A DNA stretch of 64,000 nt. Origin: Leucothrix mucor DSM 2157. Lineage in GTDB: Bacteria; Pseudomonadota; Gammaproteobacteria; Thiotrichales; Thiotrichaceae. The position numbers and the translations under genes were made by a program. Of the stretch, positions 21,470 to 44,804 are shown one piece after another; the stretch's first letter is position 1, and every line of letters starts with the position of its first letter. The DNA is taken from positions 2,028,655 to 2,092,654 of the forward strand of contig NZ_ATTE01000001.1 in the NCBI RefSeq assembly GCF_000419525.1, written 5' to 3'. The notes under the pieces are model-generated. The model ran no database searches and was not told where the DNA came from. It saw only the letters and a list, made by a program, of their open reading frames with translations.

Positions 21470-21502
21470 AAAATTGTAGGGCCGCCGGTATGGCAGCCCT
21501 CT
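21470..21502 (-). terminator. Possible terminator downstream of the large helicase gene
   Basis: Minus-strand hairpin gggctgccataccggcggccc followed by a weak T-run (tacaatttt). Confidence 0.3.
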
Positions 21503-21549
21503 TTGCAATGACTACTACTTCATAGCCTGAGCAGGCTACAAGGAAAAGC

Positions 21550-24500
21550 CTAATTAACAACCGTCAGGTACGTTGGCCATTGACCACTGTTAACCATTAA
21601 AGCCGTATCAAATACTCTTTGCATCTTCTCTTCCTGAGCATCTGCAGTGGCCGAAAAGTTAAAAAGCTGCTGCTGTTTAGTCTGCACTTTAGGATTCCAG
21701 TACCCCATTCCTTGGTCAAATAACAATGTACTTTTTCTTCCAGATGCCCACTCAATTTCCATGCTCCTGCCATGTTGTAAGTCGTAAGTCTTATCGAACA
21801 ACTGAACAGTAGGAGTTATTCCGAAGGCACCGGAGAACAACATCTCTATGCAATTGGTCAGATCACTATCTCTTATCCAGTCGTGCTTTATTTCACGACT
21901 CGGATATGCCGCATTCACCTTAGGTCTTAAGGTTCTAATCTCGACACTCTCCAACTCATCACCACTTAGAAGCTCAATAAATCCACTCAATAAAACAGCT
22001 GACCACGGTGACTTAAGGTATCGATCAGAGTAAACAATTGAACGCACCTGATCAGTCTTCAATAAATCAGAAAACTCTTTTGCATAAGACTCAAATAGCT
22101 TGGAAATTCGATCACTTACGCTACTGACAGGGCCGTTTAGTTCCTCAGTAATCACCATGACCGATGTACCAGATGCAGGCTTAATCCATAGAGAAGTATC
22201 AACAGGGTTAACTGCGATAGGTTCTAACTCATTTGAAGTTGCCCAAGTATCTGTCTTAGAAGATTGGAGCCAAGTGTCACCGGGTATCAAAGGCTCAGGG
22301 TTGCTACAGAAAAGCGTATGACACCCCTCCTCAGAAAAGACCTGCAGAATCAAGTTGGCATCACTACTGTGTATTGCTTTATCAAGCTCTACTATACGCA
22401 CCCCAAGCTCAGAAATTCGAGACAGATCCCTTTGAATCTCAGCTTCGAAGGCACTTGCTGATTCGATACATAGCTCTACACTTACTTTATCAACCAACTG
22501 CCAACGTAATACCTGATCTCTAAACCCAGCAAAACCTAAGTCCCATTGACTAATGTCGTTACTGAGTAAAAGACGAATCGTGACTTCAGAAGATTTACTT
22601 TTTAACGTATTAATAGATCTTCTGATGTACTGGTTGGCACCTCTGGAGCAATATGTAGCACCGGGAATATCTTTAAGGGCGTCCGGTAAAGATAAGAATG
22701 ACAGATAATCACTTTCTTCTAGCCACTGCTTTGCAGCTTTTCTGTCTAACTCTTCTTGCTCAACTCTACTGTCTTGTGATGCTAAGCAGGCAGAACACAC
22801 ATTGTCACAATCAGCTATACAATTTAGCTTTTCCTTTACTGATCCGATGAGACCGACCAAATCATCAAGACCTGCTAATACAAAACCAGCTCCACCGCTA
22901 GCCTGATCGAACACCTGAATAACTGAGCGTTTAGAGCCCGTTTCAAGATCTCGATTTACTCTATAACTGAACCCCATTTCAGAACTAGAGATCCCCAAAC
23001 GATCGGCTAGTGCATCACGAAGTGCTACCGCTATAGTTGTAGCAACAACCTTATCTTCAGCAGAATCACTCAGCCACTGCCCAGTTTTTGGATTCTTTAA
23101 ATATAGCTCTAAAACATCTGTCGTGATTTGGTAGCCAAGGTATATATTTGGTTTGACTGCCTCACCGGAACAGCTTTGTTCCTTATCACTGCTAACGCTC
23201 CCTCCGCCTATGGGCTTATGCATTTCATCAGGTTGCAAGGCTTTAGGCACATTACCTTCATTCGTCATTGACTCTGCTCGTCCACAACTCATGCATACCG
23301 CATAGCCTTTTTCGTGCTCTCCAGATGAATTATAAAAAACGCGACCGTCATTCCCATATTGAACATGACCGCAGCGAGCATCAGGCAGCGAAATTGACTC
23401 ACCAATTAATTGAATAAGTGGCTTCTCTACGCGAATAAATTTTTGTGATGAAATGTCATTGCCCGGAGAGTCATAAAAATCAGTCTGGAAACCTGCTGGA
23501 CGTAAGACCTGCTTTTGGTTTTTCGAAGAAATTTCAGTATCACAACCATCGCAAGTCAGGTTTTCACTATTGCTGTAAGCATTTTCTTTTAAGCCACTAG
23601 CCCCACAATTAGTACAACGCCAAGCAATATCAAACTTCTGAGCTTCATTGATTGCGCCTCCTGCATGCCATTGTAAACTAACACCAACTGAGCGATACAC
23701 TTTCCCATCAATAACGACTTGCGCACCAGGGGCATACTCCCTAATTGCAACATCTAACCCCCGCGAAGGCAGCTCTTTCCACTTTCCAGTATTATCCTCC
23801 CGTCCTTCATTTTCTTTCTGTTTTTGTTTTTGAATAAAGTCATCCATATTATAGGTATTCAGCGTAACAACATCTGTTGGAAAACCATAAACTGGAAGGA
23901 ATGTACGAACAGAAAGGTCTCGTAAAAGGTATTCACCCCCGTGCCTCGTAAGCTCTAAGGATAATGCCCTTTTATAAGCATTCTCCTTAGCATTCCCAAT
24001 GAGGAGGTTTAACTTATCAAAATCAGTTTTCCATCTGGTTTGAATACCCCCAATCAGGTCAGATGCATCAACAAAAAGCTCCTCTAAAGAACGCCCTGAG
24101 ATACCGGTGCCTGCTGTTAACTTAGCGACTGCAGAAGCGACCTCTCCTGAGTGTGAGGCTGATTCCAGCCAGTCTCTAAACCTCTGACATGGAGAGTTTT
24201 CCCCGCTATAAAACCAGCTCACTGTAAGTTTTATATAATCATCACTAGGCTCAATAAAGGTTCGAAGAAAGTATGAGAGTAAATATGAATTCACATGTCT
24301 TAATACAATCTTATCCGAGCTTAACGTAATACTGGGTGCAGGAATTTTTGTGACAAATGGCCATACCGGGTCATTGAAAGCCCGTCTATTATGTGGGTCC
24401 GCTTTGCATAAAGTGTATGCAATAGCCCTAGACTCGCTTCTTCGCCCGGCACGACCCGCTCGCTGTAAATAGTTTGCCGGATGAGGTGGAACATTATTCA

Positions 24501-27500
24501 TTACAACAGCTGATATGCCGCCAATATCTACCCCCATCTCCATAGTCGTTGAGCAGTTCAGAACATTAATTTTTCCTCGCTTAAATAGCTCTTCATATTC
24601 CTCCAGACGCTCTGAGGTTTGCTGTGCGGAGTGTTCTGCTGTTCTATAGTAAAATCCCCCCTCAACTGTTCTATCGCTAAGATCTGTCCACAGACTCTCG
24701 CTCCTTAGCTCATCAACCTCCTGATCTTGACTAACAAGTTCTCGGATTTGAACTAACTTTGGTACAGCACTGCTATTAGGTCTAAATTTAGACAGGTCGG
24801 GCAACTTTACTTTCTTACATCGGTAGTCGACATCAGTAAGGATTTTTCGTGGTAGATAAGGTGTTAAACCTCTGAAAGTAGTATCAATCAGGCGATTTGT
24901 TTCACTACAGACCCAAGCTTCTCTAGGTAATGAAAAGGTAATTTTATCCAATAGCAGTTGATAACCCTTATCAGTTCTCACCAAAATATTTACATTATCG
25001 CTAGTCAGAGCCTCCCAAGCAGACTTTAACCATAAATTCAGCTTGTTTTGGTCTTCCCTATTTGTCATGTCAAGGTTGCAACCAGTAGCTAAGAGCTTGA
25101 TTAATCTAGATGCACTATTCCCCTTAGCCTGAGGCCACATCTTTATTGTATTGCTCTCATCTGTATTTGATTCTGGCGGAAACAAGGATTTTGGTGAAAA
25201 CTTTGAGCCCATCCAGAACCTGATGGTGTTCTCAAGTTTCAAATAAGTATTTTCACGAACAAAGAAGTCTAATGTCACTTTAAGAAAATCTTTCCAGTCA
25301 CTTAGGCTTAACCGTCCTTCTAAACTAACATCTCCTTGTATTGGAGATATCGCTCTCGTTTGCTCCCAGTACTGAGGAGCATGAGATACATTCGATAAAC
25401 CCTCATAATTAACCTTAATAATTCCCAATGTCTCGGTGCTGTTCTGGTTTTTAGGTCGTCGCGCATACTCTCTTGCCAATAAAAGGCGGGCAATGTATCG
25501 ACCAGTATTATCCTCTGACAGAATCTTCCGGTTAATTGATATATTGTAATCAAGAATATATTGACTAACATCGGTACAACCGGAAAGCTCGCTTACCATA
25601 TCTTGCCAGTTCATTTCTGCAGCTTCTGGTCGTGAATCACTATCAATTAGCGCCTCAGCCTGCTTTCTAAAAACTGCAGCACGATCAGACATTCCTTTTA
25701 ACTCAAAGGTTTCAGCAAATGTTATCAAATCATCATAAGAAAACTCCCCCATGGGGGAGTTTGTGATCTTTGAGTCAACATTTTTTTGATTCTCTGCCAA
25801 GATCTCAAATACCAATCCTCTTAACCTTGACCGCTCAGCTTCCTGCTGCATTCTTACCGCCATTCTTGCCGTGCCTTGGCGACTATCGGTAAAGGTAATA
25901 AGTTTGCGTCCACGCCCAGGAAGTTCTTCAGGTGACTTTCCAGCACAATCCTCTTTATCTGGATCTGGGCAATATTCTAAGACCGTAGGAACCGCATTCG
26001 CAGTGTAAAAAGGAGATCCTAAGTATAATTGACGATACCAAGAACCAAACTTGGAGGACTTTGCGTCACAGCGGCTACATATAGACTCTGAATGATTAAT
26101 ATGGGAAAAGCTGATTGAAGAGTTACTCTGATTAAGTACACCAAACTTAAGGCTCTCAGTATCCAATGAGCTTTTGCCATACGATTCATTTTTACAGTTA
26201 ATTCCCGCAATGACTTTTTTCGTATCATTTGGTTGAATATCTGGAGCTGAGTCTGAACTACCTTCAAAATCCTCACTATCTGATTCAGAATTTAGTGAAA
26301 ACTCATCCTCAACATAAGTGCTGATTTGCTGAAGCTCTCCTCCCTTATCTTCGGCAAGTAAATGAGGCTCCTTACATCCCTTACAAAACGTTAGTTCGTA
26401 AACAGGTGACCCACATGAACAACGTGACTTATGAGCAGTGTAAATATTTCCAAACGACCACTTTCCTAAACTCTCTGGTTTGGCTGTACATTTGGGGTCA
26501 ATGCAAGCCCACAGACCATGTAACATCTGCTGAAAAAGATGAATCCGAAGCTTAAGAAAAGGTGCTGACTCGATACTAGGCTTTGTGCCTGTCATTAAAT
26601 CTAACCACCCAAGAAGCTCCTGCTGCTTCTCTGTAAGAGATTGTCCCTCCAACCTATCACCGAACTCATTTACCAGTTCAGACAAATCAAGTGGACGATT
26701 TTGTTTCACAGCACCATTTAAACTACCCTTAAGAATGTATGTTCTCAGGTCGTGAGACAGCCTGTTATTAATTAAAGCCGTGAACCTACTTTCTGAAACT
26801 TCAGAGCCGAGCTCTATCTGTGATATTTCATCAAAGCTTAAGTTAGATAACTTTTCAGGAAGCGAGATTTCATCCCAAATTCTCCTTCCACCAATAACAA
26901 CAACTTGATTTGTAGAAACCCCTGCCAAGTCTGCTAAGTACTGTGTCAACTGTTCCTTAGCATCCTCACCTGCGATAGTTGCAGAAGTGGCGACAAAACG
27001 AATATCTTTCGCGTCTCTGCCAAATGCCTCAACAACCCTACGTAGCAGTAATGAGATCTCAGCAGCTTGGGACCCAACATAGGTATGTGCTTCATCCAGA
27101 ACAATCCAGCGCAGAGATTTGGCTTCTTTTGAAATACTAAGGATTGGGCTATCTACTTGCCTCACCAACATGTATTCCAGCATGGTAGCGTTTGTCATTA
27201 AAATGGGGGCTGGTTCTTTTCTTAATAGCTCGCGAGAAAGAATCTGATTAGGCTTTTTCTTTTGCTCTTTTCTAACACGGTCTGACCTCTCCTCTGTTTT
27301 ACCGTTGTATAAGCAAAAACGTAGGTCGCTACCATAGGATTTAGTCCAGGCATCGAGCCTTTCCTGCTGAGAATTGATCAGTGCATTCAAAGGATAAAGA
27401 AATAGTGCTCTCACTCCGACCAGAGCACCCTTTTGATTAGCTCTTTCCTGAATTAAATCCTCAAGTATGGGAATCATGAAACACTCGGTCTTACCTGACC

Positions 27501-27867
27501 CCGTTCCACTTGTAATGACTGCTGACTTAGGCTGCTTATCTAACAGTGTTTCCCAAGCCTGAATTTGATGCTTGTAAGGCTTTAGACTTCTTGGAAAATC
27601 ATAGGCATCAGCTTTCTCCAAATTATCAAGCAAGCTTCTTGATAAAAGCGTTCCTTCTAAACTTGCCAATGATATTGCTGACGGCTCCCAGCCAAAAGTG
27701 TGCTCAAAAACGGGGGCTGCCAGAAAGCACCCATCAGAACCCAGCTCATCATTCATCTGGCTTGCAAGGTGCTGCCTGAGCTCTGCATTATTGATACCTA
27801 AAATACTTAATGTAGCCTCTCTGGTGCGACTGAGGCTTTGGTTAATTAAGTCCTTGAAGAAGTACAT
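21550..27867 (-). CDS. Very large SF2 DEAD/DEAH helicase with DUF1998-like Cys4 zinc-ribbon domain and unknown C-terminal region. DruE-like; candidate Druantia type III helicase.
   Basis: 2105 aa. Q-motif PYKHQIQAW, Walker A TSGTGSGKTE, DEAH box VLDEAHTY, motif III TSAT, motif VI QRAGRAGRR. Cys clusters CTNCG...CDGC and CMSCG resemble DUF1998/MrfA-like. About 40% GC versus about 48% in the flanks. Confidence 0.65.
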   Translation of the reverse strand: MYFFKDLINQSLSRTREATLSILGINNAELRQHLASQMNDELGSDGCFLAAPVFEHTFGWEPSAISLASLEGTLLSRSLLDNLEKADAYDFPRSLKPYKHQIQAWETLLDKQPKSAVITSGTGSGKTECFMIPILEDLIQERANQKGALVGVRALFLYPLNALINSQQERLDAWTKSYGSDLRFCLYNGKTEERSDRVRKEQKKKPNQILSRELLRKEPAPILMTNATMLEYMLVRQVDSPILSISKEAKSLRWIVLDEAHTYVGSQAAEISLLLRRVVEAFGRDAKDIRFVATSATIAGEDAKEQLTQYLADLAGVSTNQVVVIGGRRIWDEISLPEKLSNLSFDEISQIELGSEVSESRFTALINNRLSHDLRTYILKGSLNGAVKQNRPLDLSELVNEFGDRLEGQSLTEKQQELLGWLDLMTGTKPSIESAPFLKLRIHLFQQMLHGLWACIDPKCTAKPESLGKWSFGNIYTAHKSRCSCGSPVYELTFCKGCKEPHLLAEDKGGELQQISTYVEDEFSLNSESDSEDFEGSSDSAPDIQPNDTKKVIAGINCKNESYGKSSLDTESLKFGVLNQSNSSISFSHINHSESICSRCDAKSSKFGSWYRQLYLGSPFYTANAVPTVLEYCPDPDKEDCAGKSPEELPGRGRKLITFTDSRQGTARMAVRMQQEAERSRLRGLVFEILAENQKNVDSKITNSPMGEFSYDDLITFAETFELKGMSDRAAVFRKQAEALIDSDSRPEAAEMNWQDMVSELSGCTDVSQYILDYNISINRKILSEDNTGRYIARLLLAREYARRPKNQNSTETLGIIKVNYEGLSNVSHAPQYWEQTRAISPIQGDVSLEGRLSLSDWKDFLKVTLDFFVRENTYLKLENTIRFWMGSKFSPKSLFPPESNTDESNTIKMWPQAKGNSASRLIKLLATGCNLDMTNREDQNKLNLWLKSAWEALTSDNVNILVRTDKGYQLLLDKITFSLPREAWVCSETNRLIDTTFRGLTPYLPRKILTDVDYRCKKVKLPDLSKFRPNSSAVPKLVQIRELVSQDQEVDELRSESLWTDLSDRTVEGGFYYRTAEHSAQQTSERLEEYEELFKRGKINVLNCSTTMEMGVDIGGISAVVMNNVPPHPANYLQRAGRAGRRSESRAIAYTLCKADPHNRRAFNDPVWPFVTKIPAPSITLSSDKIVLRHVNSYLLSYFLRTFIEPSDDYIKLTVSWFYSGENSPCQRFRDWLESASHSGEVASAVAKLTAGTGISGRSLEELFVDASDLIGGIQTRWKTDFDKLNLLIGNAKENAYKRALSLELTRHGGEYLLRDLSVRTFLPVYGFPTDVVTLNTYNMDDFIQKQKQKENEGREDNTGKWKELPSRGLDVAIREYAPGAQVVIDGKVYRSVGVSLQWHAGGAINEAQKFDIAWRCTNCGASGLKENAYSNSENLTCDGCDTEISSKNQKQVLRPAGFQTDFYDSPGNDISSQKFIRVEKPLIQLIGESISLPDARCGHVQYGNDGRVFYNSSGEHEKGYAVCMSCGRAESMTNEGNVPKALQPDEMHKPIGGGSVSSDKEQSCSGEAVKPNIYLGYQITTDVLELYLKNPKTGQWLSDSAEDKVVATTIAVALRDALADRLGISSSEMGFSYRVNRDLETGSKRSVIQVFDQASGGAGFVLAGLDDLVGLIGSVKEKLNCIADCDNVCSACLASQDSRVEQEELDRKAAKQWLEESDYLSFLSLPDALKDIPGATYCSRGANQYIRRSINTLKSKSSEVTIRLLLSNDISQWDLGFAGFRDQVLRWQLVDKVSVELCIESASAFEAEIQRDLSRISELGVRIVELDKAIHSSDANLILQVFSEEGCHTLFCSNPEPLIPGDTWLQSSKTDTWATSNELEPIAVNPVDTSLWIKPASGTSVMVITEELNGPVSSVSDRISKLFESYAKEFSDLLKTDQVRSIVYSDRYLKSPWSAVLLSGFIELLSGDELESVEIRTLRPKVNAAYPSREIKHDWIRDSDLTNCIEMLFSGAFGITPTVQLFDKTYDLQHGRSMEIEWASGRKSTLLFDQGMGYWNPKVQTKQQQLFNFSATADAQEEKMQRVFDTALMVNSGQWPTYLTVVN

Positions 27868-27873
27868 AAGCGA

Positions 27874-30800
27874 TTAATCCTTATCGTTTTTATTAAGTAA
27901 ATATGAGGTAACAAGTGCATGAGCTGGCCGATACCAAGAGGTCCTATCAAAGTCTGATATTTTTCTGACAAAGAACTTTAGCTCGGCCATCGTTGAGTTC
28001 ATTTTTAAGTCAGCAATACTAGATTTTCCTGAGGTTACATAAGCCATAAATATAGGCAGGTAAACCACTGAATCTTCATATTTTTCAAGAGGCAGTGCCT
28101 TAATTTTCTTTGAAAAATCTTGCTGTTCAACCCACGCTGAAAGTTCACCATTCAAATACTTTGGCCAAAGAGTGTTTTGATAGCTTTCATGAAGAGTGTC
28201 CCTCCACATAGGCAATATCAAGTCAGGTGGCAGACTTGTAAGCACCTCATTATTGCCACTGCTAAGGTAGTGTTCCACGCTCTCAAAGCCAGAAACGATG
28301 TTCGAAAGAACGGCTTTTCTGTTATCAACCATGTCATTAATAACAAATTCTGGAAGCCCCATTCCCCTCAGCCAACGATCATAATTTTTATAGGCTTGGC
28401 TCCAAATAGGTAAAGAAATACTTTCCCAGATTATCGACAACTCATCACGCATCCGGTCACTAAATAACTCATCAACCTCAAGGCGTAAAATCGATACTGC
28501 TAAGGTTAGTGGATTGCGTGAAAGTGAAAGCCAACTCTCAAAGGTAGACAGTGGTAGGTGATCAAATTTTCTTTTAATATCATCTAAATATTGCCACCCA
28601 CTGTGATCAAGATCACTTCCCATTTCGGCAATTTGGTCATCTATTACATGTGGATTATTCTGAGGGTGATAAAGCCGCGCAGCCTCATGTAAGGAGTGAA
28701 TTTTAGATCCGGAAGAATAGGTATTCGAAGCCGGTTGGCCGACTAGCAGATATGGCCTGAACTTGACTCTAGACTCTGCTTCTGGATAGAGCAACCAAGG
28801 CCCATCTCTATACATGGAGTCATCTGTGACAAATCGGCCAGTACCCACTCCCTGACTTGTTAGTTCACGCAATTCAATGGGGGTTTGCTTGGGATCAGAA
28901 AGGAGCATTGCGGAGACATTTACTCCACTAGCCACTCTACCAGTCGTGAAGTCAGATGCAGTGAAAACCTCTGTGCTATCTTTTGCGATAGACCCGTTAT
29001 ATCTTTTAATATTGACTGTCATTAAGCGACGCTGAGGGCTTTCAACCGTTAGCTTGACATAGGCATCCTGACTTTCCATCGCAGCCAATATCTGTCGTAA
29101 ATCATTTTGATACGCAAACAAATTAACAGAAAGCGGAACATCACCCGATTTGAACAACCGGTAATCAAGATAAACGTTAGTGCTGAAGTTCTTATCCTGC
29201 AACTCCATTCTCAGATGAAAGGACTGTGTTTCACCTACAGAAAATAGCAATATACTCAAGCCAATCAGATCTTCTGGGATCAAACTTTCGGACGTCAATA
29301 TATTGTTACTGGAGTCCAATAATCGCGCTCCCTCATAAGGAAAAGGTAAGCGTAGTATTACTGGCTCAAGAAATTCACCACCTTTAACACTTAATTGAAG
29401 ATTAGAGGGTGGTACTGCGTCTCGATAAGAAAGTGAAATAACCGATCGCCCCTCAATAATCTCTAAGCGGGAGCTGATATTTTCACCCATGACGCCAAAC
29501 TTACACTCACCTCCCCCCATAATTTCAAGGCGAGCTGGGCGAGTAGCATCACCGGCAAACAAACGGACTTTAAAGCTTTCAGGTAGTACACCGAATTTTC
29601 TCCTGAATAGAATTTCACCAGAGCTATTTTTAAGCGTGTAATTAAAGACCCCACCTATCTCACGCCGGCTTTTAGCAACTAACTCTCCATTAATATACTC
29701 ATAAACAGAACCTTCATTGCTCTTTTGGCACAGCTTTGGCCATCCCAGATAGACAGCGTTAGGGAGGGAATCAAAATCAAGCAGCTTTCCATCCAATGCA
29801 AACGTTTGAGTTACAGAAGGATGATTCAAACGAACTCTAAACTTATCACTTCCCAGAAAGATTGATGTCTCCTGGCTAAGCAAAACCCAGCGAACACCAT
29901 CAGTTTGTATATGCTTTATTTCTACACTTTCCGCTGGAGTAAAGTCAGCATTAGGTGGAAGCCGCACTAAAACTGCTGGTTGCCTCAAGGAACAACTCGC
30001 ATTTGCAAGCAGTTCCTGATCACCACTTACCTCAAAAATGACCGGTGCAGTTTCAAAGTCAATAGAGCTGGCATCAAACTGAGTTTGATAAATGGCAACA
30101 CCGTTATCCATCAAAGCCAAAGAAAGTGACTCACTACAGTCTCTTCTTTTTAACACTACTGGTGCTCTCGGTAGCCGTACTTTCAGCTCAGTACCATTTT
30201 GTACTTCACCATAGACAATGCTACCCCGAGCAATAAGCACACTGCCCTCATAGAATGCCATTTCAAGACGAGTACTGCTTAGAGCCGAAATATCAACCGG
30301 AAAGGTTACCGCAATAGGCGTAATGAGTTGTGCCTGTAAATCCCAGTGACCTTCAACTTGTCCAGCAATACTGTGCGTACACCTGAAATCATTCGGTGTC
30401 TTTTTAATGATTTCATTTTCTGCCTGACGCTTACTTGCATCACGCAACCAGTCCGTAATCAGGTTTTTAGCATTAGCTTCATTAAGTGGTAGAGGAAAAT
30501 CTTTTTTCCAGCGGGGCTCAGCTTTATCTAAAAATTCAACCGGATCTATTTCTTGCTTCAAGCTGGGATACTTTCCTGCGAGATGCATCAGCTGTTCAAT
30601 CACACCTGCAAGCAATTGTCGGGTTTCAAGGTTGTGAAAGGTATAAGGCAAGTCTTGCTCATAACTGGCAATCATGTCACTCGTCGTGCCTAAACTGGCT
30701 TTATTGCTATGGTAATTCTTCAAACCCTTTCTGATTACACGCCCAAAGCCGTGTGTTTCGCTTTTTATCAGCGGCCAAGGCAGCCCGCCCTCCAGAAATA

Positions 30801-31176
30801 ATGAGCCAATAAAATTCCGACCTTTTTCTGTACGACGTATTGGCCTTTTCCAAAAGCTTTCTAAGCCATAACTTATGAGTTCACTTCTTAGACCTTGCTT
30901 AAAATCACAACCTAATGACTTATCTGCCCACTCCCACGACCAGCTACCCTCTTCTGCTCCGTAGTCGCGCCGAAACCTTTCTGCTACAAATAAACAATAG
31001 AGCTCAGCCCAATGCTTACCTTTGATCGGGTCTGTAGCGAATCTAATATTGGCGATTAACTTATTTTTCAGGCTTTGAAATTCCTCAAATGTTACGTGAT
31101 AACTATACAAAGGCTTACCAGTTGGCCCAGCAAAACATTCACGAATAAAGAGAAACTCACTCAACCAAGCCTTCAT
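27874..31176 (-). CDS. Large protein of unknown function upstream of the helicase. DruH-like; candidate Druantia type III partner.
   Basis: 1100 aa with no recognisable motif. Its stop is 6 nt before the helicase start. Size and order (unknown ~1000-aa protein then DUF1998 helicase) match the type III Druantia architecture. Low GC. Confidence 0.45.
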   Translation of the reverse strand: MKAWLSEFLFIRECFAGPTGKPLYSYHVTFEEFQSLKNKLIANIRFATDPIKGKHWAELYCLFVAERFRRDYGAEEGSWSWEWADKSLGCDFKQGLRSELISYGLESFWKRPIRRTEKGRNFIGSLFLEGGLPWPLIKSETHGFGRVIRKGLKNYHSNKASLGTTSDMIASYEQDLPYTFHNLETRQLLAGVIEQLMHLAGKYPSLKQEIDPVEFLDKAEPRWKKDFPLPLNEANAKNLITDWLRDASKRQAENEIIKKTPNDFRCTHSIAGQVEGHWDLQAQLITPIAVTFPVDISALSSTRLEMAFYEGSVLIARGSIVYGEVQNGTELKVRLPRAPVVLKRRDCSESLSLALMDNGVAIYQTQFDASSIDFETAPVIFEVSGDQELLANASCSLRQPAVLVRLPPNADFTPAESVEIKHIQTDGVRWVLLSQETSIFLGSDKFRVRLNHPSVTQTFALDGKLLDFDSLPNAVYLGWPKLCQKSNEGSVYEYINGELVAKSRREIGGVFNYTLKNSSGEILFRRKFGVLPESFKVRLFAGDATRPARLEIMGGGECKFGVMGENISSRLEIIEGRSVISLSYRDAVPPSNLQLSVKGGEFLEPVILRLPFPYEGARLLDSSNNILTSESLIPEDLIGLSILLFSVGETQSFHLRMELQDKNFSTNVYLDYRLFKSGDVPLSVNLFAYQNDLRQILAAMESQDAYVKLTVESPQRRLMTVNIKRYNGSIAKDSTEVFTASDFTTGRVASGVNVSAMLLSDPKQTPIELRELTSQGVGTGRFVTDDSMYRDGPWLLYPEAESRVKFRPYLLVGQPASNTYSSGSKIHSLHEAARLYHPQNNPHVIDDQIAEMGSDLDHSGWQYLDDIKRKFDHLPLSTFESWLSLSRNPLTLAVSILRLEVDELFSDRMRDELSIIWESISLPIWSQAYKNYDRWLRGMGLPEFVINDMVDNRKAVLSNIVSGFESVEHYLSSGNNEVLTSLPPDLILPMWRDTLHESYQNTLWPKYLNGELSAWVEQQDFSKKIKALPLEKYEDSVVYLPIFMAYVTSGKSSIADLKMNSTMAELKFFVRKISDFDRTSWYRPAHALVTSYLLNKNDKD

Positions 31177-31427
31177 AAACTAGATCCTCGGCTTATTTTC
31201 AAGCCAACTGTTTTCATATAACAGCAACAATAAGACGCCAAAAACTACTAATATTTGCCGCTTCTAATAAATTATCAACAATAGAACATACCCCTTTCAA
31301 AAAAAATAATAAACAATGAGTTAAGGACATAAAATTTAATATGTAATCAAACAAATAAGTGGTACCTCTTATGAGCTCTAAGATTTGATCTCTTAAAGAG
31401 TAAGAAATACCACCTATAATGGCTCTA

Positions 31428-32573
31428 TCATTCCAAGCGCACCGTGCTATTCATCAGTCCTTCCAAGCCGCCATACACCTTCAGCTCACAAATATTGCTG
31501 GTAATACTTTCCAGTACTTCCAGCTCTTTCAAGCGCAATAGCACAGGATTACCTTCCATCAATTTGGCCGTATTATGCAGCGAACGCGTGGCCTGAGTTT
31601 CTTCACGACGACGAATCAAATTCGCTTCAGCCTGCTTTTCAGCCGCTACTACTTCAATCAGGATTTCCTTCATATCACCTGGTAACACGATATCTCGCAC
31701 GCCGACCTTTTTCAGGTCAAGGCCATAGGCTGACACACTCTCCAGCACTAGCTCATGCACTTGCTGGTTTAGCAGGTTTTTATCCGCCAACAATTGGTCC
31801 AGCGTTTGAGTCGAGACCACGCTGCGCAATGCCAGCTGCAGTTCACGATACAAAAACGCCTCATGATCTTTAATCGCATCACGGACTTTAATGGCATCCA
31901 ATACCTGCCACGTCGCTGAGACATTAATCCGCAGGCTCACCTTGTCCTTGGTTAAAATCTCCTGACCATTCACCTCCATGGTCTGCAAGCGCATATCCAT
32001 CATCTGCAAACTCACATACGGATTAACCAACCACCAGCCATGCTGGCCTTCTTGCAAAACGGCATGACGCACACCGCTCACCAATAAGAAACCGATATGT
32101 CCTTCCGGCACATAGCCCAGCGTGTACAAGCAAGTCACCAGGTGGCTTTTTAGCAATGGCTCACGGGTTTTCGCCAACTCATCCGCCAAGCTAGCGCTCA
32201 ACAGATAGCTATTGCTGATATCCAACGTGCGAAACTCCAACTCGCGCTTACCTTTCCAATACGCGCCACTACGACCTGGTGCGGCGATGTCTTTAAGCAC
32301 GCCGGCTTCGTAAAACATTCCAATAGCTTGCGGGCCAGTTTCCCAGCTCATCACATGCTCTGTGAATGCCTCCGGGTGCAACTCGACCAAGTGCAATAAA
32401 TCCTGATCGACGCGTCGAAACTCATTACTCACCGCATACTGCTGAATACTGATCTCACCGCGTAAATTCCAATGTTCATAACAGCCCGGCGTTAAAATCG
32501 CCTGAAACTGCTGATTTTTAAACAGCAATCCGCGGTGTGATTCCGGAATAATTGTTTTCATTTTGAATAACAT
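31428..32573 (-). CDS. SPFH/band 7 (stomatin/prohibitin/flotillin-like) domain protein
   Basis: 381 aa. Band-7 core (VSLRINVSATWQV...KKVGVRDIVLPGDMKEI) followed by a coiled-coil region EVVAAEKQAEANLIRRREETQA. Confidence 0.75.
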   Translation of the reverse strand: MLFKMKTIIPESHRGLLFKNQQFQAILTPGCYEHWNLRGEISIQQYAVSNEFRRVDQDLLHLVELHPEAFTEHVMSWETGPQAIGMFYEAGVLKDIAAPGRSGAYWKGKRELEFRTLDISNSYLLSASLADELAKTREPLLKSHLVTCLYTLGYVPEGHIGFLLVSGVRHAVLQEGQHGWWLVNPYVSLQMMDMRLQTMEVNGQEILTKDKVSLRINVSATWQVLDAIKVRDAIKDHEAFLYRELQLALRSVVSTQTLDQLLADKNLLNQQVHELVLESVSAYGLDLKKVGVRDIVLPGDMKEILIEVVAAEKQAEANLIRRREETQATRSLHNTAKLMEGNPVLLRLKELEVLESITSNICELKVYGGLEGLMNSTVRLE

Positions 32574-32860
32574 GCTGCTTCTCCTGCAAAATTCATAAAT
32601 AAAGTCGGCATAGCCTTCACACCTGAACGAGCGTCGATATTTACACTAAACGGGGCTAAGCGCCGGATGCCTCATAACAAGGTATTGACGGTCACTTGCC
32701 GCACTTAATGGACCCATACCAAAGGTCATTCAATGTGCTGGATGCCTGCTCAGTGCCGCCGACTCAGTGTGTTGCCACGCTGCGCCCGCTTTACCTAACA
32801 AACATCCCGAAGGCTATTGCCTAGTGGCCCTTTCGGGCAGTTAAGACAACTGGGAGAGTT

Positions 32861-32935
32861 GTTTTGCTAGTTGGAATCGAACCAACAACCGATTGATGAT
32901 GAGTCAATTGCTCTACCGCTTGAGCTATAACAAAT
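32861..32935 (-). ncRNA. tRNA-like element with CAT anticodon-like loop. It could be a degenerate tRNA-Met/Ile2 or a YrlA-type Y-RNA tRNA-mimic module.
   Basis: The minus strand folds as a cloverleaf: acceptor TTTGTTA/TAGCAAA (one G-U pair), D-stem GCTC/GAGC, anticodon stem ATTGA/TCAAT with loop CTCATCA, T-arm GTTGG-TTCGATT-CCAAC. It is non-canonical: U at position 1, C at position 37 and no encoded CCA. It sits between a sigma-54 promoter and the SPFH gene. Confidence 0.5.
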
Positions 32936-33067
32936 TGCCGTGCTTTTCGCACAGCGTGCTATGACCCTACACAGCCGATACACAGCCACTTTCAGAGAAA
33001 GCCTGTGTCAGGCAGGTATACAGAACCTGCTCCGCTGGCCAATGCAGTTAACAGTCATAAATAATCT

Positions 33068-33086
33068 ATTGCACGGCACGTGCCAA
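33068..33086 (-). promoter_or_regulatory. Sigma-54 (-24/-12) promoter divergent from rtcR, embedded in the palindrome GGCACGTGCC
   Basis: Minus strand reads TTGGCACG-TGCC-GTGCAAT. GG and GC elements have the correct spacing (TGGCACG-N4-TTGCA consensus) with one mismatch. It lies about 150 nt upstream of the rtcR start, on the opposite strand. Confidence 0.55.
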
Positions 33087-33238: not shown

Positions 33239-34843
33239 ATGACCAGTAACGTCATCATCAGTATTTTGGGTAGTAAGCTTGATCATCGTGGCTTTGGTCA
33301 GAAGCGATTTGAACGCTGGCGACCCAATGTTGCACTAGCTCAGCACCCTGAGTTACCCATTGATGAGTTTATTCTGCTGTATCACCCCGACCATGAAGCG
33401 CTGGCTAAATTAACGCTGGGAGATATCAAAGAGGTGTCGCCTAGCACCAAGCTCACCGGTATTACGCTTAATATCGACGACCCTTGGAATTTTGAGCAGG
33501 TGTATGGCGAGCTGCACGATGTGATGAAGCGCATCTCTTTCGACCCTGAAAATCACAATTACTACACGCACATCACTACCGGTACGCATGTCGCGCAGAT
33601 CTGTTTGTACCTGTTAACCGAGGCGCGCTTTATTCCCGGTAAGTTACTGCAATCCTCACCACTCAAAGAAGGCAATGGCGGCTCTTATCAAATTATTGAT
33701 TTGGATTTATCCTGCTATGATCAAATTGCGTCACGCTTTGCGGCCGAGGCGCGCCAAGGGGTTGACCATTTAAAAGGCGGCATCCAAACCCGCAATGCCG
33801 CTTTTAATAAAATGATGGCGCAGCTGGAGCAGGTATCGATTCGCTCGACCGCACCGATTTTACTCACTGGCCCGACCGGTGCCGGTAAATCGCAATTGGC
33901 GCGTCGTATTTATGCACTGAAGCAGAAGCGCGGTTTGGTCAGCGCTGATCTGGTGGAAGTTAACTGCGCGACCTTACGCGGCGACAATGCTATGTCCGCG
34001 CTATTTGGCCATGTAAAAGGGGCCTTTACCGGTGCCTTAAATGCGCGTACCGGCCTGCTGCGTGAAGCCAATAAAGGTCTGTTATTTCTCGATGAAATTG
34101 GCGAGCTGGGGCTGGATGAGCAGGCCATGTTACTACGGGCGATTGAGGATAAGGTCTTTATGCCGCTGGGCTCCGATCGCAATATCAGTAGCGATTTTCA
34201 ACTGATTGCCGGCACCAATCGCAACCTATTCCAACGCGTTAGCGAAGGCTTGTTCCGCGAAGATTTACTGGCGCGTATCAATCTTTGGACCTATGAAATC
34301 CCCTCGCTAAAAGCGCGGCAGGAAGATTTAGACCCCAATATCGACTATGAACTGCAGCAGTTCACCCATAAAGCGGGCCACAATGTGCGCTTCAATAAAA
34401 CTGCGCGCAAGCAATACCTTGATTTTGCCCACTCCGGCGAAGCCAGCTGGCGCGCCAATTTCCGCGATTTAAACTCCAGCATGACGCGCATGGCGACACT
34501 GGCCAGCGGTGGGCGCATTACCGAAGCAATCATTGCCGATGAAATCGTACGCTTGCAATCAGACTGGGCAAACCATGAAACAAAAGCTTCAGGCAGCACC
34601 TCGGTAGCTGACACTCTGCAAAGCATTTTATCCGATGCGGCAATTGCCGAAATCGACCTGTTTGATCACGCACAACTGGCCCATGTCATCGAAATTTGTC
34701 GCGGTAGTAAAAGCATGGCCGAGGCCGGTCGTAAACTGTTTAATGTGAGCCGAGAGCGCCGTAGCAGCAGCAATGACAGCAACCGGCTCAAAGTCTATCT
34801 CAACAAATTTGACTTAGAGTTTAAGCAGCTCACGGCCAACTGA
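33239..34843 (+). CDS. rtcR: Sigma-54-dependent transcriptional activator RtcR (N-terminal CARF-like domain + AAA+ + HTH)
   Basis: 534 aa. It is near-collinear with E. coli RtcR across all domains (WRPNV, HITTGTHVAQIC, LLTGPTGAGKSQLARRI, VEVNCATLRGDNAMSALFGHVKGAFTGA, GNFRDL). Confidence 0.9.
   Translation: MTSNVIISILGSKLDHRGFGQKRFERWRPNVALAQHPELPIDEFILLYHPDHEALAKLTLGDIKEVSPSTKLTGITLNIDDPWNFEQVYGELHDVMKRISFDPENHNYYTHITTGTHVAQICLYLLTEARFIPGKLLQSSPLKEGNGGSYQIIDLDLSCYDQIASRFAAEARQGVDHLKGGIQTRNAAFNKMMAQLEQVSIRSTAPILLTGPTGAGKSQLARRIYALKQKRGLVSADLVEVNCATLRGDNAMSALFGHVKGAFTGALNARTGLLREANKGLLFLDEIGELGLDEQAMLLRAIEDKVFMPLGSDRNISSDFQLIAGTNRNLFQRVSEGLFREDLLARINLWTYEIPSLKARQEDLDPNIDYELQQFTHKAGHNVRFNKTARKQYLDFAHSGEASWRANFRDLNSSMTRMATLASGGRITEAIIADEIVRLQSDWANHETKASGSTSVADTLQSILSDAAIAEIDLFDHAQLAHVIEICRGSKSMAEAGRKLFNVSRERRSSSNDSNRLKVYLNKFDLEFKQLTAN

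Positions 34844-44728: not shown

Positions 44729-44804
<76 letters not shown>

Follow-up and report, generated by a model that had tools for sequence, protein, structure and literature searches.

The locus

The stretch of DNA analysed here, called the window below, comprises 64,000 nucleotides (nt) of Leucothrix mucor DSM 2157 (contig NZ_ATTE01000001.1, positions 2,028,655 to 2,092,654), and all coordinates refer to it. In its middle, rtcR (33239..34843, plus strand), which codes for a sigma54-dependent activator with CARF, AAA+ and HTH parts, is divergent from an operon on the minus strand that contains a tRNA-like gene of 73 nt (32862..32934, minus strand). The end of this gene lies 288 nt before the start of a co-oriented Band-7/SPFH (slipin) gene of 381 amino acids (31428..32573, minus strand), which carries a Band_7 domain and the Shine-Dalgarno sequence AGGAG at 32585-32581. 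Judged from the sequence and its relatives, the element is a conserved, structurally constrained and non-decoding tRNA-like gene that is tied to Band-7 and located in an RtcR/sigma54 leader. We consider it very likely that 32862-32934(-) is a b7a-tRNA, i.e., a band 7-associated tRNA mimic under RtcR control. The Band-7/SPFH gene downstream, which was overlooked in an earlier note on this DNA, seems to be its real partner.

As that note had described, the element forms a full cloverleaf with a canonical T arm, a D arm and a CAT loop. ARAGORN calls a tRNA-Met(cat) at 32861-32934(-), and the Rfam tRNA model RF00005 matches 32862-32934(-) with 62.5 bits (E 3.6e-11; gathering score 29) over 71 of 71 model positions. 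The T arm reads GUUGG-UUCGAUU-CCAAC, and the tertiary nucleotides U8, A14, G18G19, A21, G53 U54 U55 C56, A58 and C61 are present, together with a Levitt pair (A15-U48). The deviations listed in the note are each seen in the sequence as well: the acceptor stem starts with U1-A72, is AU-rich and includes a U5-G68 pair; the anticodon loop CUCAUCA places CAU (CAT at 32901-32899) at the anticodon position and C at position 37 (32898); and the discriminator A73 is followed by CAA rather than CCA. For the note, a score as a normal functional tRNA, along with expression and aminoacylation, would have counted against a mimic. By bit score the element does formally pass for a normal tRNA (62.5 bits versus 72.5 bits for a genuine tRNA-Thr in the window), but the comparative data are not what a decoding tRNA would give.

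The identity of rtcR is backed by the Pfam profiles RtcR (234.7 bits) and Sigma54_activat, by the NCBIfam equivalog RNA_repair_RtcR (765 bits for a cut-off of 650) and by the PADLOC profile RtcR--CARF_AAA_HTH (793 bits); its closest matches, at 73-78%, are from Thiotrichaceae and Leucothrix. RtcR senses tRNA halves that bear a cyclic phosphate, and 5' halves with this end group activate it (Hughes 2020). On the operon side, a sigma54 (-24/-12) promoter motif, TGGCAC-GTGCC-GTGCA, can be read at 33070..33085 (minus strand), and transcription is inferred to start near 33060. In two relatives that are syntenic with the window at 83-90% DNA identity (L037 and L038), the GG and GC of the motif TGGCAC-N5-GTGCA are retained and the spacer varies, while an equivalent motif occurs in nine of 12 rtcR-divergent loci, 105-232 nt 5' of the tRNA-like gene. 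In the window the tRNA-like gene follows the promoter after about 125 nt, and the remaining 288 nt of leader lead on to the Band-7 start. The conserved divergent promoter supports a place of the tRNA-like gene within the RtcR-dependent transcript, in agreement with the earlier note.

The 5' leader proper (about 126 nt; 32935..33060, minus strand) is predicted to fold into a closed domain and a hairpin abutting the tRNA-like gene, with a minimum free energy (MFE) of -52.4 kcal/mol. Two hairpins within it resemble terminators (33013-33001 and 32955-32937) and could serve as attenuators. The leader is kept in L037 and L038, a set of three sequences that is too small for covariation, and the second hairpin is missing in L037. 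No E. coli counterpart of the leader was found by blastn among 5,426 genomes.

Linkage to Band-7/SPFH genes

Loci were gathered in two scans and searched for tRNA-like genes with a purpose-built covariance model, R1, which was built from RtcB-containing Band-7 loci and had the window sequence among its 20 training rows. The first scan, anchored on RtcR and searched with ARAGORN as well, covered 36 loci (48-78% identity) of Gammaproteobacteria, Planctomycetota, Riflebacteria and other groups. Most of them have tRNA-like genes on the operon strand, and gene clustering and Pfam identify RtcB, RtcA, Rsr (one locus), RlaP and an SPFH ortholog as neighbours. The SPFH ortholog is present in 19 of the 36 loci, and a tRNA-like gene stands just upstream of it in 18 (E<0.01); the nineteenth, L021, gives a marginal model match only (17.7 bits, E 0.12). 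Two of the loci, L028 and L031, share the order of the window, with rtcR, a tRNA-like CAT gene and SPFH, and then continue with rtcA and rtcB.

Homologs of the SPFH protein number more than 7,000. A second scan, with the SPFH alignment as query against metagenomes, gave 80 loci at 37-62% identity, on which model R1 found 290 matches, almost all on the SPFH strand. Among the 60 of these loci that have at least 700 nt of upstream sequence, 55 carry a same-strand tRNA-like gene 220-614 nt (median 334) before the SPFH start. Homologous tRNA-like genes thus occupy the same slot before orthologous SPFH genes (53-62% identical proteins) in several phyla. The other neighbours are less constant: across the 80 loci, RtcB occurs in 34, RtcR in 10, RlaP in seven, RtcA in two and DruH/DruE in none. 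Among the 80, at least 17 loci with 2.5 kb or more of downstream sequence lack RtcB, which thus often, but by no means always, lies next to the module; where it is missing, the gene after SPFH varies (MFS, TPR, AAA ATPase, kinase, HNH). Given this linkage to Band-7 amid varied neighbours, the tRNA-like gene and Band-7 form a portable two-part module.

This distribution bears directly on the second proposal of the earlier note, namely that the element is what remains of a tRNA-Met at which a genomic island once integrated. Such an origin would suit the region around it (21-35 kb), which has a lower GC content of about 42% and includes a defence cassette. Yet the element is found in the same place, fixed relative to Band-7, in more than 70 loci of different phyla and with compensatory changes; moreover, the sole detectable indel junction falls after Band-7, 1.4 kb off, and neither an integrase nor flanking repeats are found. 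The proposal was abandoned, as we see next to no chance for it. The genuine tRNA-Thr(TGT) of the window, at 44729-44804(+) and with an encoded CCA, was also considered as an island integration site (at 44.7 kb) and rejected, since it stands among housekeeping genes (DAO oxidoreductase, Usp) and no integrase accompanies it. In the D arm and the anticodon stem (UAGCUCAGUUGGUAGAGCAACUGACU...), this tRNA-Thr nearly equals the type-A mimics, the type to which the window element belongs, which hints at the kind of tRNA from which the mimic derives.

Several further arrangements were seen at these loci. In those without RtcB, an AAA ATPase or TPR protein recurs after Band-7, and a Ser/Thr kinase is seen once (L058:9162-10325, L095:2955-4022, L057:3945-5819, L073:1353-3200, L117:9194-10978); their products may be alternative partners of the module. 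In 13 of the 80 SPFH-anchored loci, 10-24 co-oriented tRNA genes with near-complete anticodon sets lie upstream of the order b7a-tRNA, SPFH, RtcB and, in part, RlaP (L049:1279-5692, L050:266-4567, L079:3280-5497, L085:2633-7112, L108:2314-4001 and eight more loci). Long tRNA arrays were previously tied to rtcB in cyanobacteria, and we found no paper noting a link of such arrays to SPFH. Many loci also have a second, 'type B' tRNA-like gene directly 5' of the type A gene (L002:4136-4210(-), L003:4354-4423(-), L040:6950-7021(+), L041:7560-7628(+), L045:5411-5478(+) and others). It has a GC-rich acceptor, an anticodon arm closed by a 4-5-nt loop and an encoded U/A-CCA, the last base of which abuts nucleotide 1 of type A, so that cleavage of type A by RNase P would free a mature CCA end. 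Type B is missing from the window, and model R1 finds no degenerate copy in its 5' leader at E<=1. Finally, two RtcR-divergent operons of Phycisphaerales, one with Rsr (L022:3123-3633) and one with SPFH (L024:3689-3934), carry short arrays of three to six tRNA genes after Rsr or SPFH and before rtcB-rtcA; from this layout, the Ro and Band-7 systems appear to swap within one genomic frame.

Structural constraint and lack of decoding

Over a family of 20 sequences, the cloverleaf is 94.2% paired and shows 13 two-sided pair changes, compared to five at most in slid controls; none of 500 shuffles matched the observed covariation. Taken together across the family, all four helices are kept through compensatory change. 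Four of the five anticodon-stem pairs covary, the four pairs of the D stem show no covariation and have a frozen sequence, and the 1:72 pair is mismatched in 12 of the 20 sequences. Over 73 proximal copies, hardly any change is seen in the D arm (UAGCUCA..GGGUAGAGCA) or the T arm (GGGUUCGAnUCCC), and the nucleotides that make the tertiary contacts are all close to invariant too.

The anticodon loop, on the other hand, varies freely across the family in sequence and in length (4-9 nt). In the close relatives the anticodon is TTT (L038) or CTT (L037) versus CAT in the window, and three of the five differences between the tRNA-like genes of the window and L038 fall inside the 7-nt anticodon loop. 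The loop CUCAUCA reappears in distant lineages. Diversifying selection on the loop was considered and dropped, as its entropy (1.03) equals that of the variable loop (1.03); only a lack of constraint is claimed.

Anticodon drift in near relatives, aberrant loop lengths, C37, the missing CCA and the 1:72 mismatches all argue that the element does not decode. Of the properties of a decoding tRNA-Met or tRNA-Ile2, it lacks anticodon conservation among orthologs, a purine at position 37 and an encoded CCA, the last of which the tRNA-Thr of the window does have. It is therefore very improbable that the gene is a spare functional tRNA-Met or tRNA-Ile2, induced by stress to replace a damaged tRNA. 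Such a role would fit the high tRNA score and the combination of A73 and CAU, which are determinants for MetRS. It would also fit the related loci with full tRNA arrays beside SPFH and RtcB, given that array tRNAs of Anabaena become aminoacylated and occur on polysomes (Santamaria-Gomez et al., NAR 2021). A replacement tRNA is nonetheless hard to reconcile with an anticodon that differs between near-identical loci, with a weak AU-rich acceptor that is mismatched at 1:72 in most members, or with the persistence of the SPFH-proximal copy where a complete array already supplies the anticodon.

The leader RNA downstream of the cloverleaf

The transcript is structured beyond the cloverleaf as well. 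A first hairpin, P0 (ACAAC-UCUCCCA-GUUGU; 32846..32862, minus strand), read from the sequence, starts at the discriminator and may serve in 3' processing or protection; by inspection, CUACC...GGUAG stands at this place in Methylococcales relatives. It is followed by P1 (32827..32838, minus strand), a GCCC-GAAA-GGGC hairpin with a GNRA tetraloop. In an alignment of 14 sequences, its GCCC-GNRA-GGGC stem is invariant in 13, with the loops GAAA, GCAA and GUAA. Of the two flanking hairpins singled out in the earlier note, P1 is thus real and conserved, whereas CC-UUCG-GG (32813-32806) proved to be the 5' strand of a covarying long-range helix.

This helix closes a structured RNA domain of about 215 nt (32607..32821, minus strand), which ends about 25 nt before the Shine-Dalgarno sequence. 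The closing helix has 9 bp (32817-32809 with 32618-32610), is extendable by GGCA/UGCC and encloses long internal helices. RNAalifold assigns 34 pairs to the domain, with 95.8% of cells paired (a figure that is somewhat inflated, structure and pair counts being drawn from the same alignment), 21 two-sided pair changes versus at most eight in slid controls, and none of 500 shuffles coming up to these values. Compensatory change is visible in the long-range helix itself (GCCUCC/GGAGGC in relatives, GCCUUC/GAAGGC in the window), and the single-sequence MFE fold of the window restores the same helices (z = -3.4). The domain has no Rfam match, even at E<=5. It is detected by nhmmer in 23 loci (about 215-250 nt; e.g., L002:3803-4057, L044:114-366, L045:5559-5791), and the 240-290 nt between tRNA-like gene and SPFH start are conserved in length and sequence where SPFH identity is at least about 50%. 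A distant soil clade with about 40% SPFH identity (L057, L058, L061 and others) has a non-homologous domain in the same layout. T-box-like sensing of the adjacent anticodon by the domain was tried and rejected: 4-mers complementary to the own loop occur 1.79 times per domain versus 1.75 in mismatched controls, with no consistent column.

A conserved structured domain between cloverleaf and Shine-Dalgarno raises the possibility that the cloverleaf serves in cis as punctuation. It would then be kept as a site for RNase P and the 3' endonuclease; cleavage would take off the 5' leader, so that the Band-7 mRNA would begin with the 215-nt domain as a stabilising or regulatory end, and the excised RNA would be idle in trans. 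The fixed same-strand position, 220-614 nt before the SPFH start, and the irrelevance of the anticodon loop agree with this. The thrU-tyrU-glyT-thrT-tufB operon of E. coli is a precedent for a tRNA-mRNA co-transcript. RNase P, however, needs acceptor and T-arm geometry only, which leaves the frozen D stem, the full set of tertiary nucleotides and the covarying anticodon stem unexplained, and we regard a purely cis-acting role as rather unlikely.

Missing repair genes and an inserted Druantia system

A tblastn search found no homologs of RtcB, RtcA, Rsr or RlaP in the 64-kb window, confirming over this whole stretch the absence of Rsr and RtcB reported in the earlier note. What follows Band-7 instead are druH (27874..31176, minus strand; PADLOC DruH3 1208 bits, NCBIfam YjiT_fam 810 bits) and druE, a helicase gene with DEAD, Helicase_C and MZB domains in Pfam (21550..27867, minus strand; PADLOC DruE3 2412 bits). 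By these profiles, the two appear to make up a complete Druantia type III system.

Both genes lie in a 9.96-kb indel (21476..31431). The sequence of L038 aligns with window positions 33719-31432 and then with 21475-20248, so that 21476-31431 is missing in this close relative; the AKR, EAL and BLUF genes past the cassette are common to both. The cassette separates the stop codon of Band-7 from the terminator: a terminator hairpin after druE (21500-21478, minus strand) occupies the slot of the L038 Band-7 terminator. No terminal direct or inverted repeats were seen at the cassette borders, and the GC content of about 42% in the cassette and the surrounding 21-35 kb stretch is on the lower side. 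Druantia as an ancestral partner of the module was rejected, as no DruH or DruE occurs in the 36 RtcR-anchored or the 80 SPFH-anchored loci, and a DruH-anchored metagenome scan found nothing. The closest relatives have no Druantia cassette, and the association with the module is a single case among the loci sampled. The cassette is thus best read as a strain-specific, recent insertion inside the Band-7 transcription unit. A terminator scan found no operon-strand terminator between the Band-7 stop and druH, and a sigma70-like promoter is located at 31300-31271(-), in the AT-rich spacer before druH. Read-through from the RtcR promoter into druH-druE is plausible on this layout.

Relation to known RNAs and operons

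The b7a-tRNA class was predicted by Burroughs & Aravind (Nucleic Acids Res 2016). As summarised by Wang et al. 2018 (bioRxiv 10.1101/312249), it is a purely predicted class that lies beside Band-7 and RtcB, 'strongly resembles an authentic tRNA' and is proposed to be functionally redundant with YrlA. In the papers searched, no further mention of the name was found beyond this one. The window element shares with the class its tRNA resemblance, a co-oriented Band-7 neighbour in an rtc-type neighbourhood, RtcR/sigma54 control and homology to copies in RtcB operons: it scores 89.1 bits with model R1, the window sequence being among the 20 training rows. It differs in lacking the adjacent RtcB ligase, which belongs to the context of the first description and is not implied by the class name, and also in having no RtcA or RlaP nearby. 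Another difference is the Druantia III cassette after Band-7. Seen in addition are the conserved domain of about 215 nt and, at other loci, the type B genes. The element thus appears to join a known, purely predicted class, the new context being the missing ligase and the Druantia insertion.

Features shared with YrlA (Chen et al., RNA 2014), to which the earlier note had likened the element, are the mimicry of a tRNA, the place in an operon regulated by RtcR, D and T arms capable of tertiary pairing and a proposed scaffold-protein partner. YrlA itself is encoded in rsr-yrlBA-rtcBA operons (Hughes 2020; Chen 2014), binds Ro60 by a stem of its 5' and 3' ends, and has a loop-closed acceptor and no anticodon arm. 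The window element, in contrast, has the usual cloverleaf form; its genomic partner is Band-7, and no rsr lies beside it. A Ro60-binding Y RNA of the YrlA type would account for the RtcR context, the tRNA-like D and T arms and the Levitt pair. Still, no rsr is found in 64 kb; the motif GNCGAA(N0-1)G is absent from the 487-nt leader, where the D and T arms and the Levitt equivalent (A15-U48, G18G19, U54U55C56) are present; no non-tRNA Rfam model, those for Y RNA included, gives a match at E<=5; and an open acceptor with a complete anticodon arm is not the permuted topology of YrlA. The long terminal stem of 5' and 3' ends that the note had suggested looking for was not found, the flanks being unpaired with each other and folding as separate domains. 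Of the YrlA-like reading, the non-decoding tRNA mimic in an RtcR RNA-damage regulon therefore stands, while an actual YrlA or Y RNA is exceedingly improbable. We treat the spare tRNA, the Y RNA and the decayed tRNA as effectively excluded.

The rtcB-linked stress tRNA arrays (Santamaria-Gomez et al., NAR 2021; TrcR regulon, Commun Biol 2023) resemble the module in that translational stress brings about their co-regulation with RtcB and, for Anabaena, also with a slipin; they have been proposed to act as sponges. Their tRNAs have canonical anticodon sets and are chargeable, whereas the SPFH-proximal copy is a single, drifting gene with an often aberrant loop, and the window has no array. Similarly, RtcR-headed superoperons have been described in which an RtcR homolog stands upstream of co-directional defence genes, including Druantia III, with cyclic-phosphate RNA fragments as the suggested inducers (Bell et al., eLife 2024). 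These are CoCoNuT-centred, with no mention of Band-7 or a tRNA-like gene, while the window has no CoCoNuT and its Druantia genes were seemingly inserted recently behind a resident rtcR / b7a-tRNA / Band-7 module.

Proposed mechanism

In the mechanism that we propose, activation of RtcR would yield a single transcript that runs from the 5' leader through the tRNA-like gene and the structured domain (about 215 nt) to the end of Band-7 and, in this strain, probably on into druH-druE. An L-shaped RNA would be cut out by RNase P and a 3' endonuclease, like tRNAs that are co-transcribed with mRNAs, and would work via its tRNA body and not by decoding. Most likely, an oligomeric scaffold of Band-7 would have in it a dedicated RNA partner, much as Ro60 has in Y RNA, and the resulting Band-7-RNA particle would present a tRNA surrogate to tRNA-handling enzymes, or recruit them, during tRNA damage. 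The vault ribonucleoprotein, with its MVP shell, vault RNA and TEP1 carrying a TROVE domain, is the comparison to be named for such a particle. A Band-7-RNA particle is favoured by the linkage to Band-7 rather than to RtcB or RtcR, and by the conservation of the D and T arms beyond structural need.

The partner protein belongs to an oligomer-forming family with an SPFH core. The AF2 model (pLDDT 83) has three beta-meander repeats, the SPFH core and a long helix, and its secondary-structure map is without an N-terminal hydrophobic helix, which suggests a soluble protein with no transmembrane segment. A hint from independent experiments that slipins belong to this stress regulon comes from Anabaena, where the slipin alr0740 was de-repressed 42-fold alongside rtcB and the tRNA-array operon when TrcR was deleted (TrcR regulon, Commun Biol 2023). 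If the identity is right, we give the role as cofactor of a Band-7 ribonucleoprotein (RNP) an about even chance.

An alternative that takes the same RNA into account is that the mimic acts as decoy and sentinel, i.e., as a sacrificial substrate that soaks up anticodon nucleases and tRNA-targeting toxins, its cut 5' half with a 2',3'-cyclic phosphate binding the CARF part of RtcR and amplifying induction. The known activation of RtcR by such halves (Hughes 2020), the proposal that operonic tRNAs near rtcB soak up toxin RNases like sponges (Santamaria-Gomez et al., NAR 2021), the anticodon switches CAU/UUU/CUU among close relatives and the location of the near-invariant D arm in the 5' half all speak for it. 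The 4-6- or 9-nt loops of many members, however, would be poor nuclease bait, and the loop, no more variable than the variable loop, does not point to diversifying selection. Why the linkage should be strictly to Band-7 is left unexplained, and the related YrlA mimic is not cut by a Salmonella nuclease (Hughes 2020). A decoy is thus possible, though we doubt it. That the RNA, if correctly identified, is something other than an RNP cofactor, a decoy or sensor, or a cis signal seems improbable.

Several points weigh against the Band-7-associated mimic and its proposed role. Every mechanistic step for the b7a-tRNA class is inferential, and membership in the class was judged by the summary in Wang et al. 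2018 together with operational criteria. Model R1 also gives the real tRNA-Thr of the window 73 bits, so that mimic and tRNA are inseparable by sequence alone and the evidence for a mimic is comparative. No computed feature supports a contact between Band-7 and RNA. The unconstrained anticodon loop suits a cis role, in which only recognition by RNase P is needed, equally well. As RtcB, RtcA and RlaP are missing from the window, the partners that a repair cofactor requires would have to come from other parts of the genome.

A more far-reaching idea, which we regard as speculative and not very probable, is that rtcR, b7a-tRNA and Band-7 constitute a self-contained sensor of tRNA damage that arms Druantia III by sigma54 read-through, and that mimic, 215-nt domain and MVP-like Band-7 together form a vault-like RNP. 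If true, a tRNA-cutting phage or toxin would switch on DNA-level immunity.

Significance

The b7a-tRNA is a decade-old prediction in the RtcR-RtcB pathway, the physiological logic of which is still being worked out. To the few specialists of the class, its presence here will be of little surprise; what the locus offers is a tractable place for its study. The window is a clean instance, with one mimic, one Band-7 gene and one regulator, in which genetic work would not be complicated by a ligase or cyclase. It also provides testable handles: an anticodon loop that is free next to D and T arms that are frozen, a domain of about 215 nt that always follows the mimic in the clade, and a Druantia III system inside the transcription unit. 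Should RtcR-driven read-through into this system be true, Leucothrix mucor would present a natural case of RNA-damage sensing that controls a DNA-targeting defence, a form of control previously raised only for the CoCoNuT superoperons.

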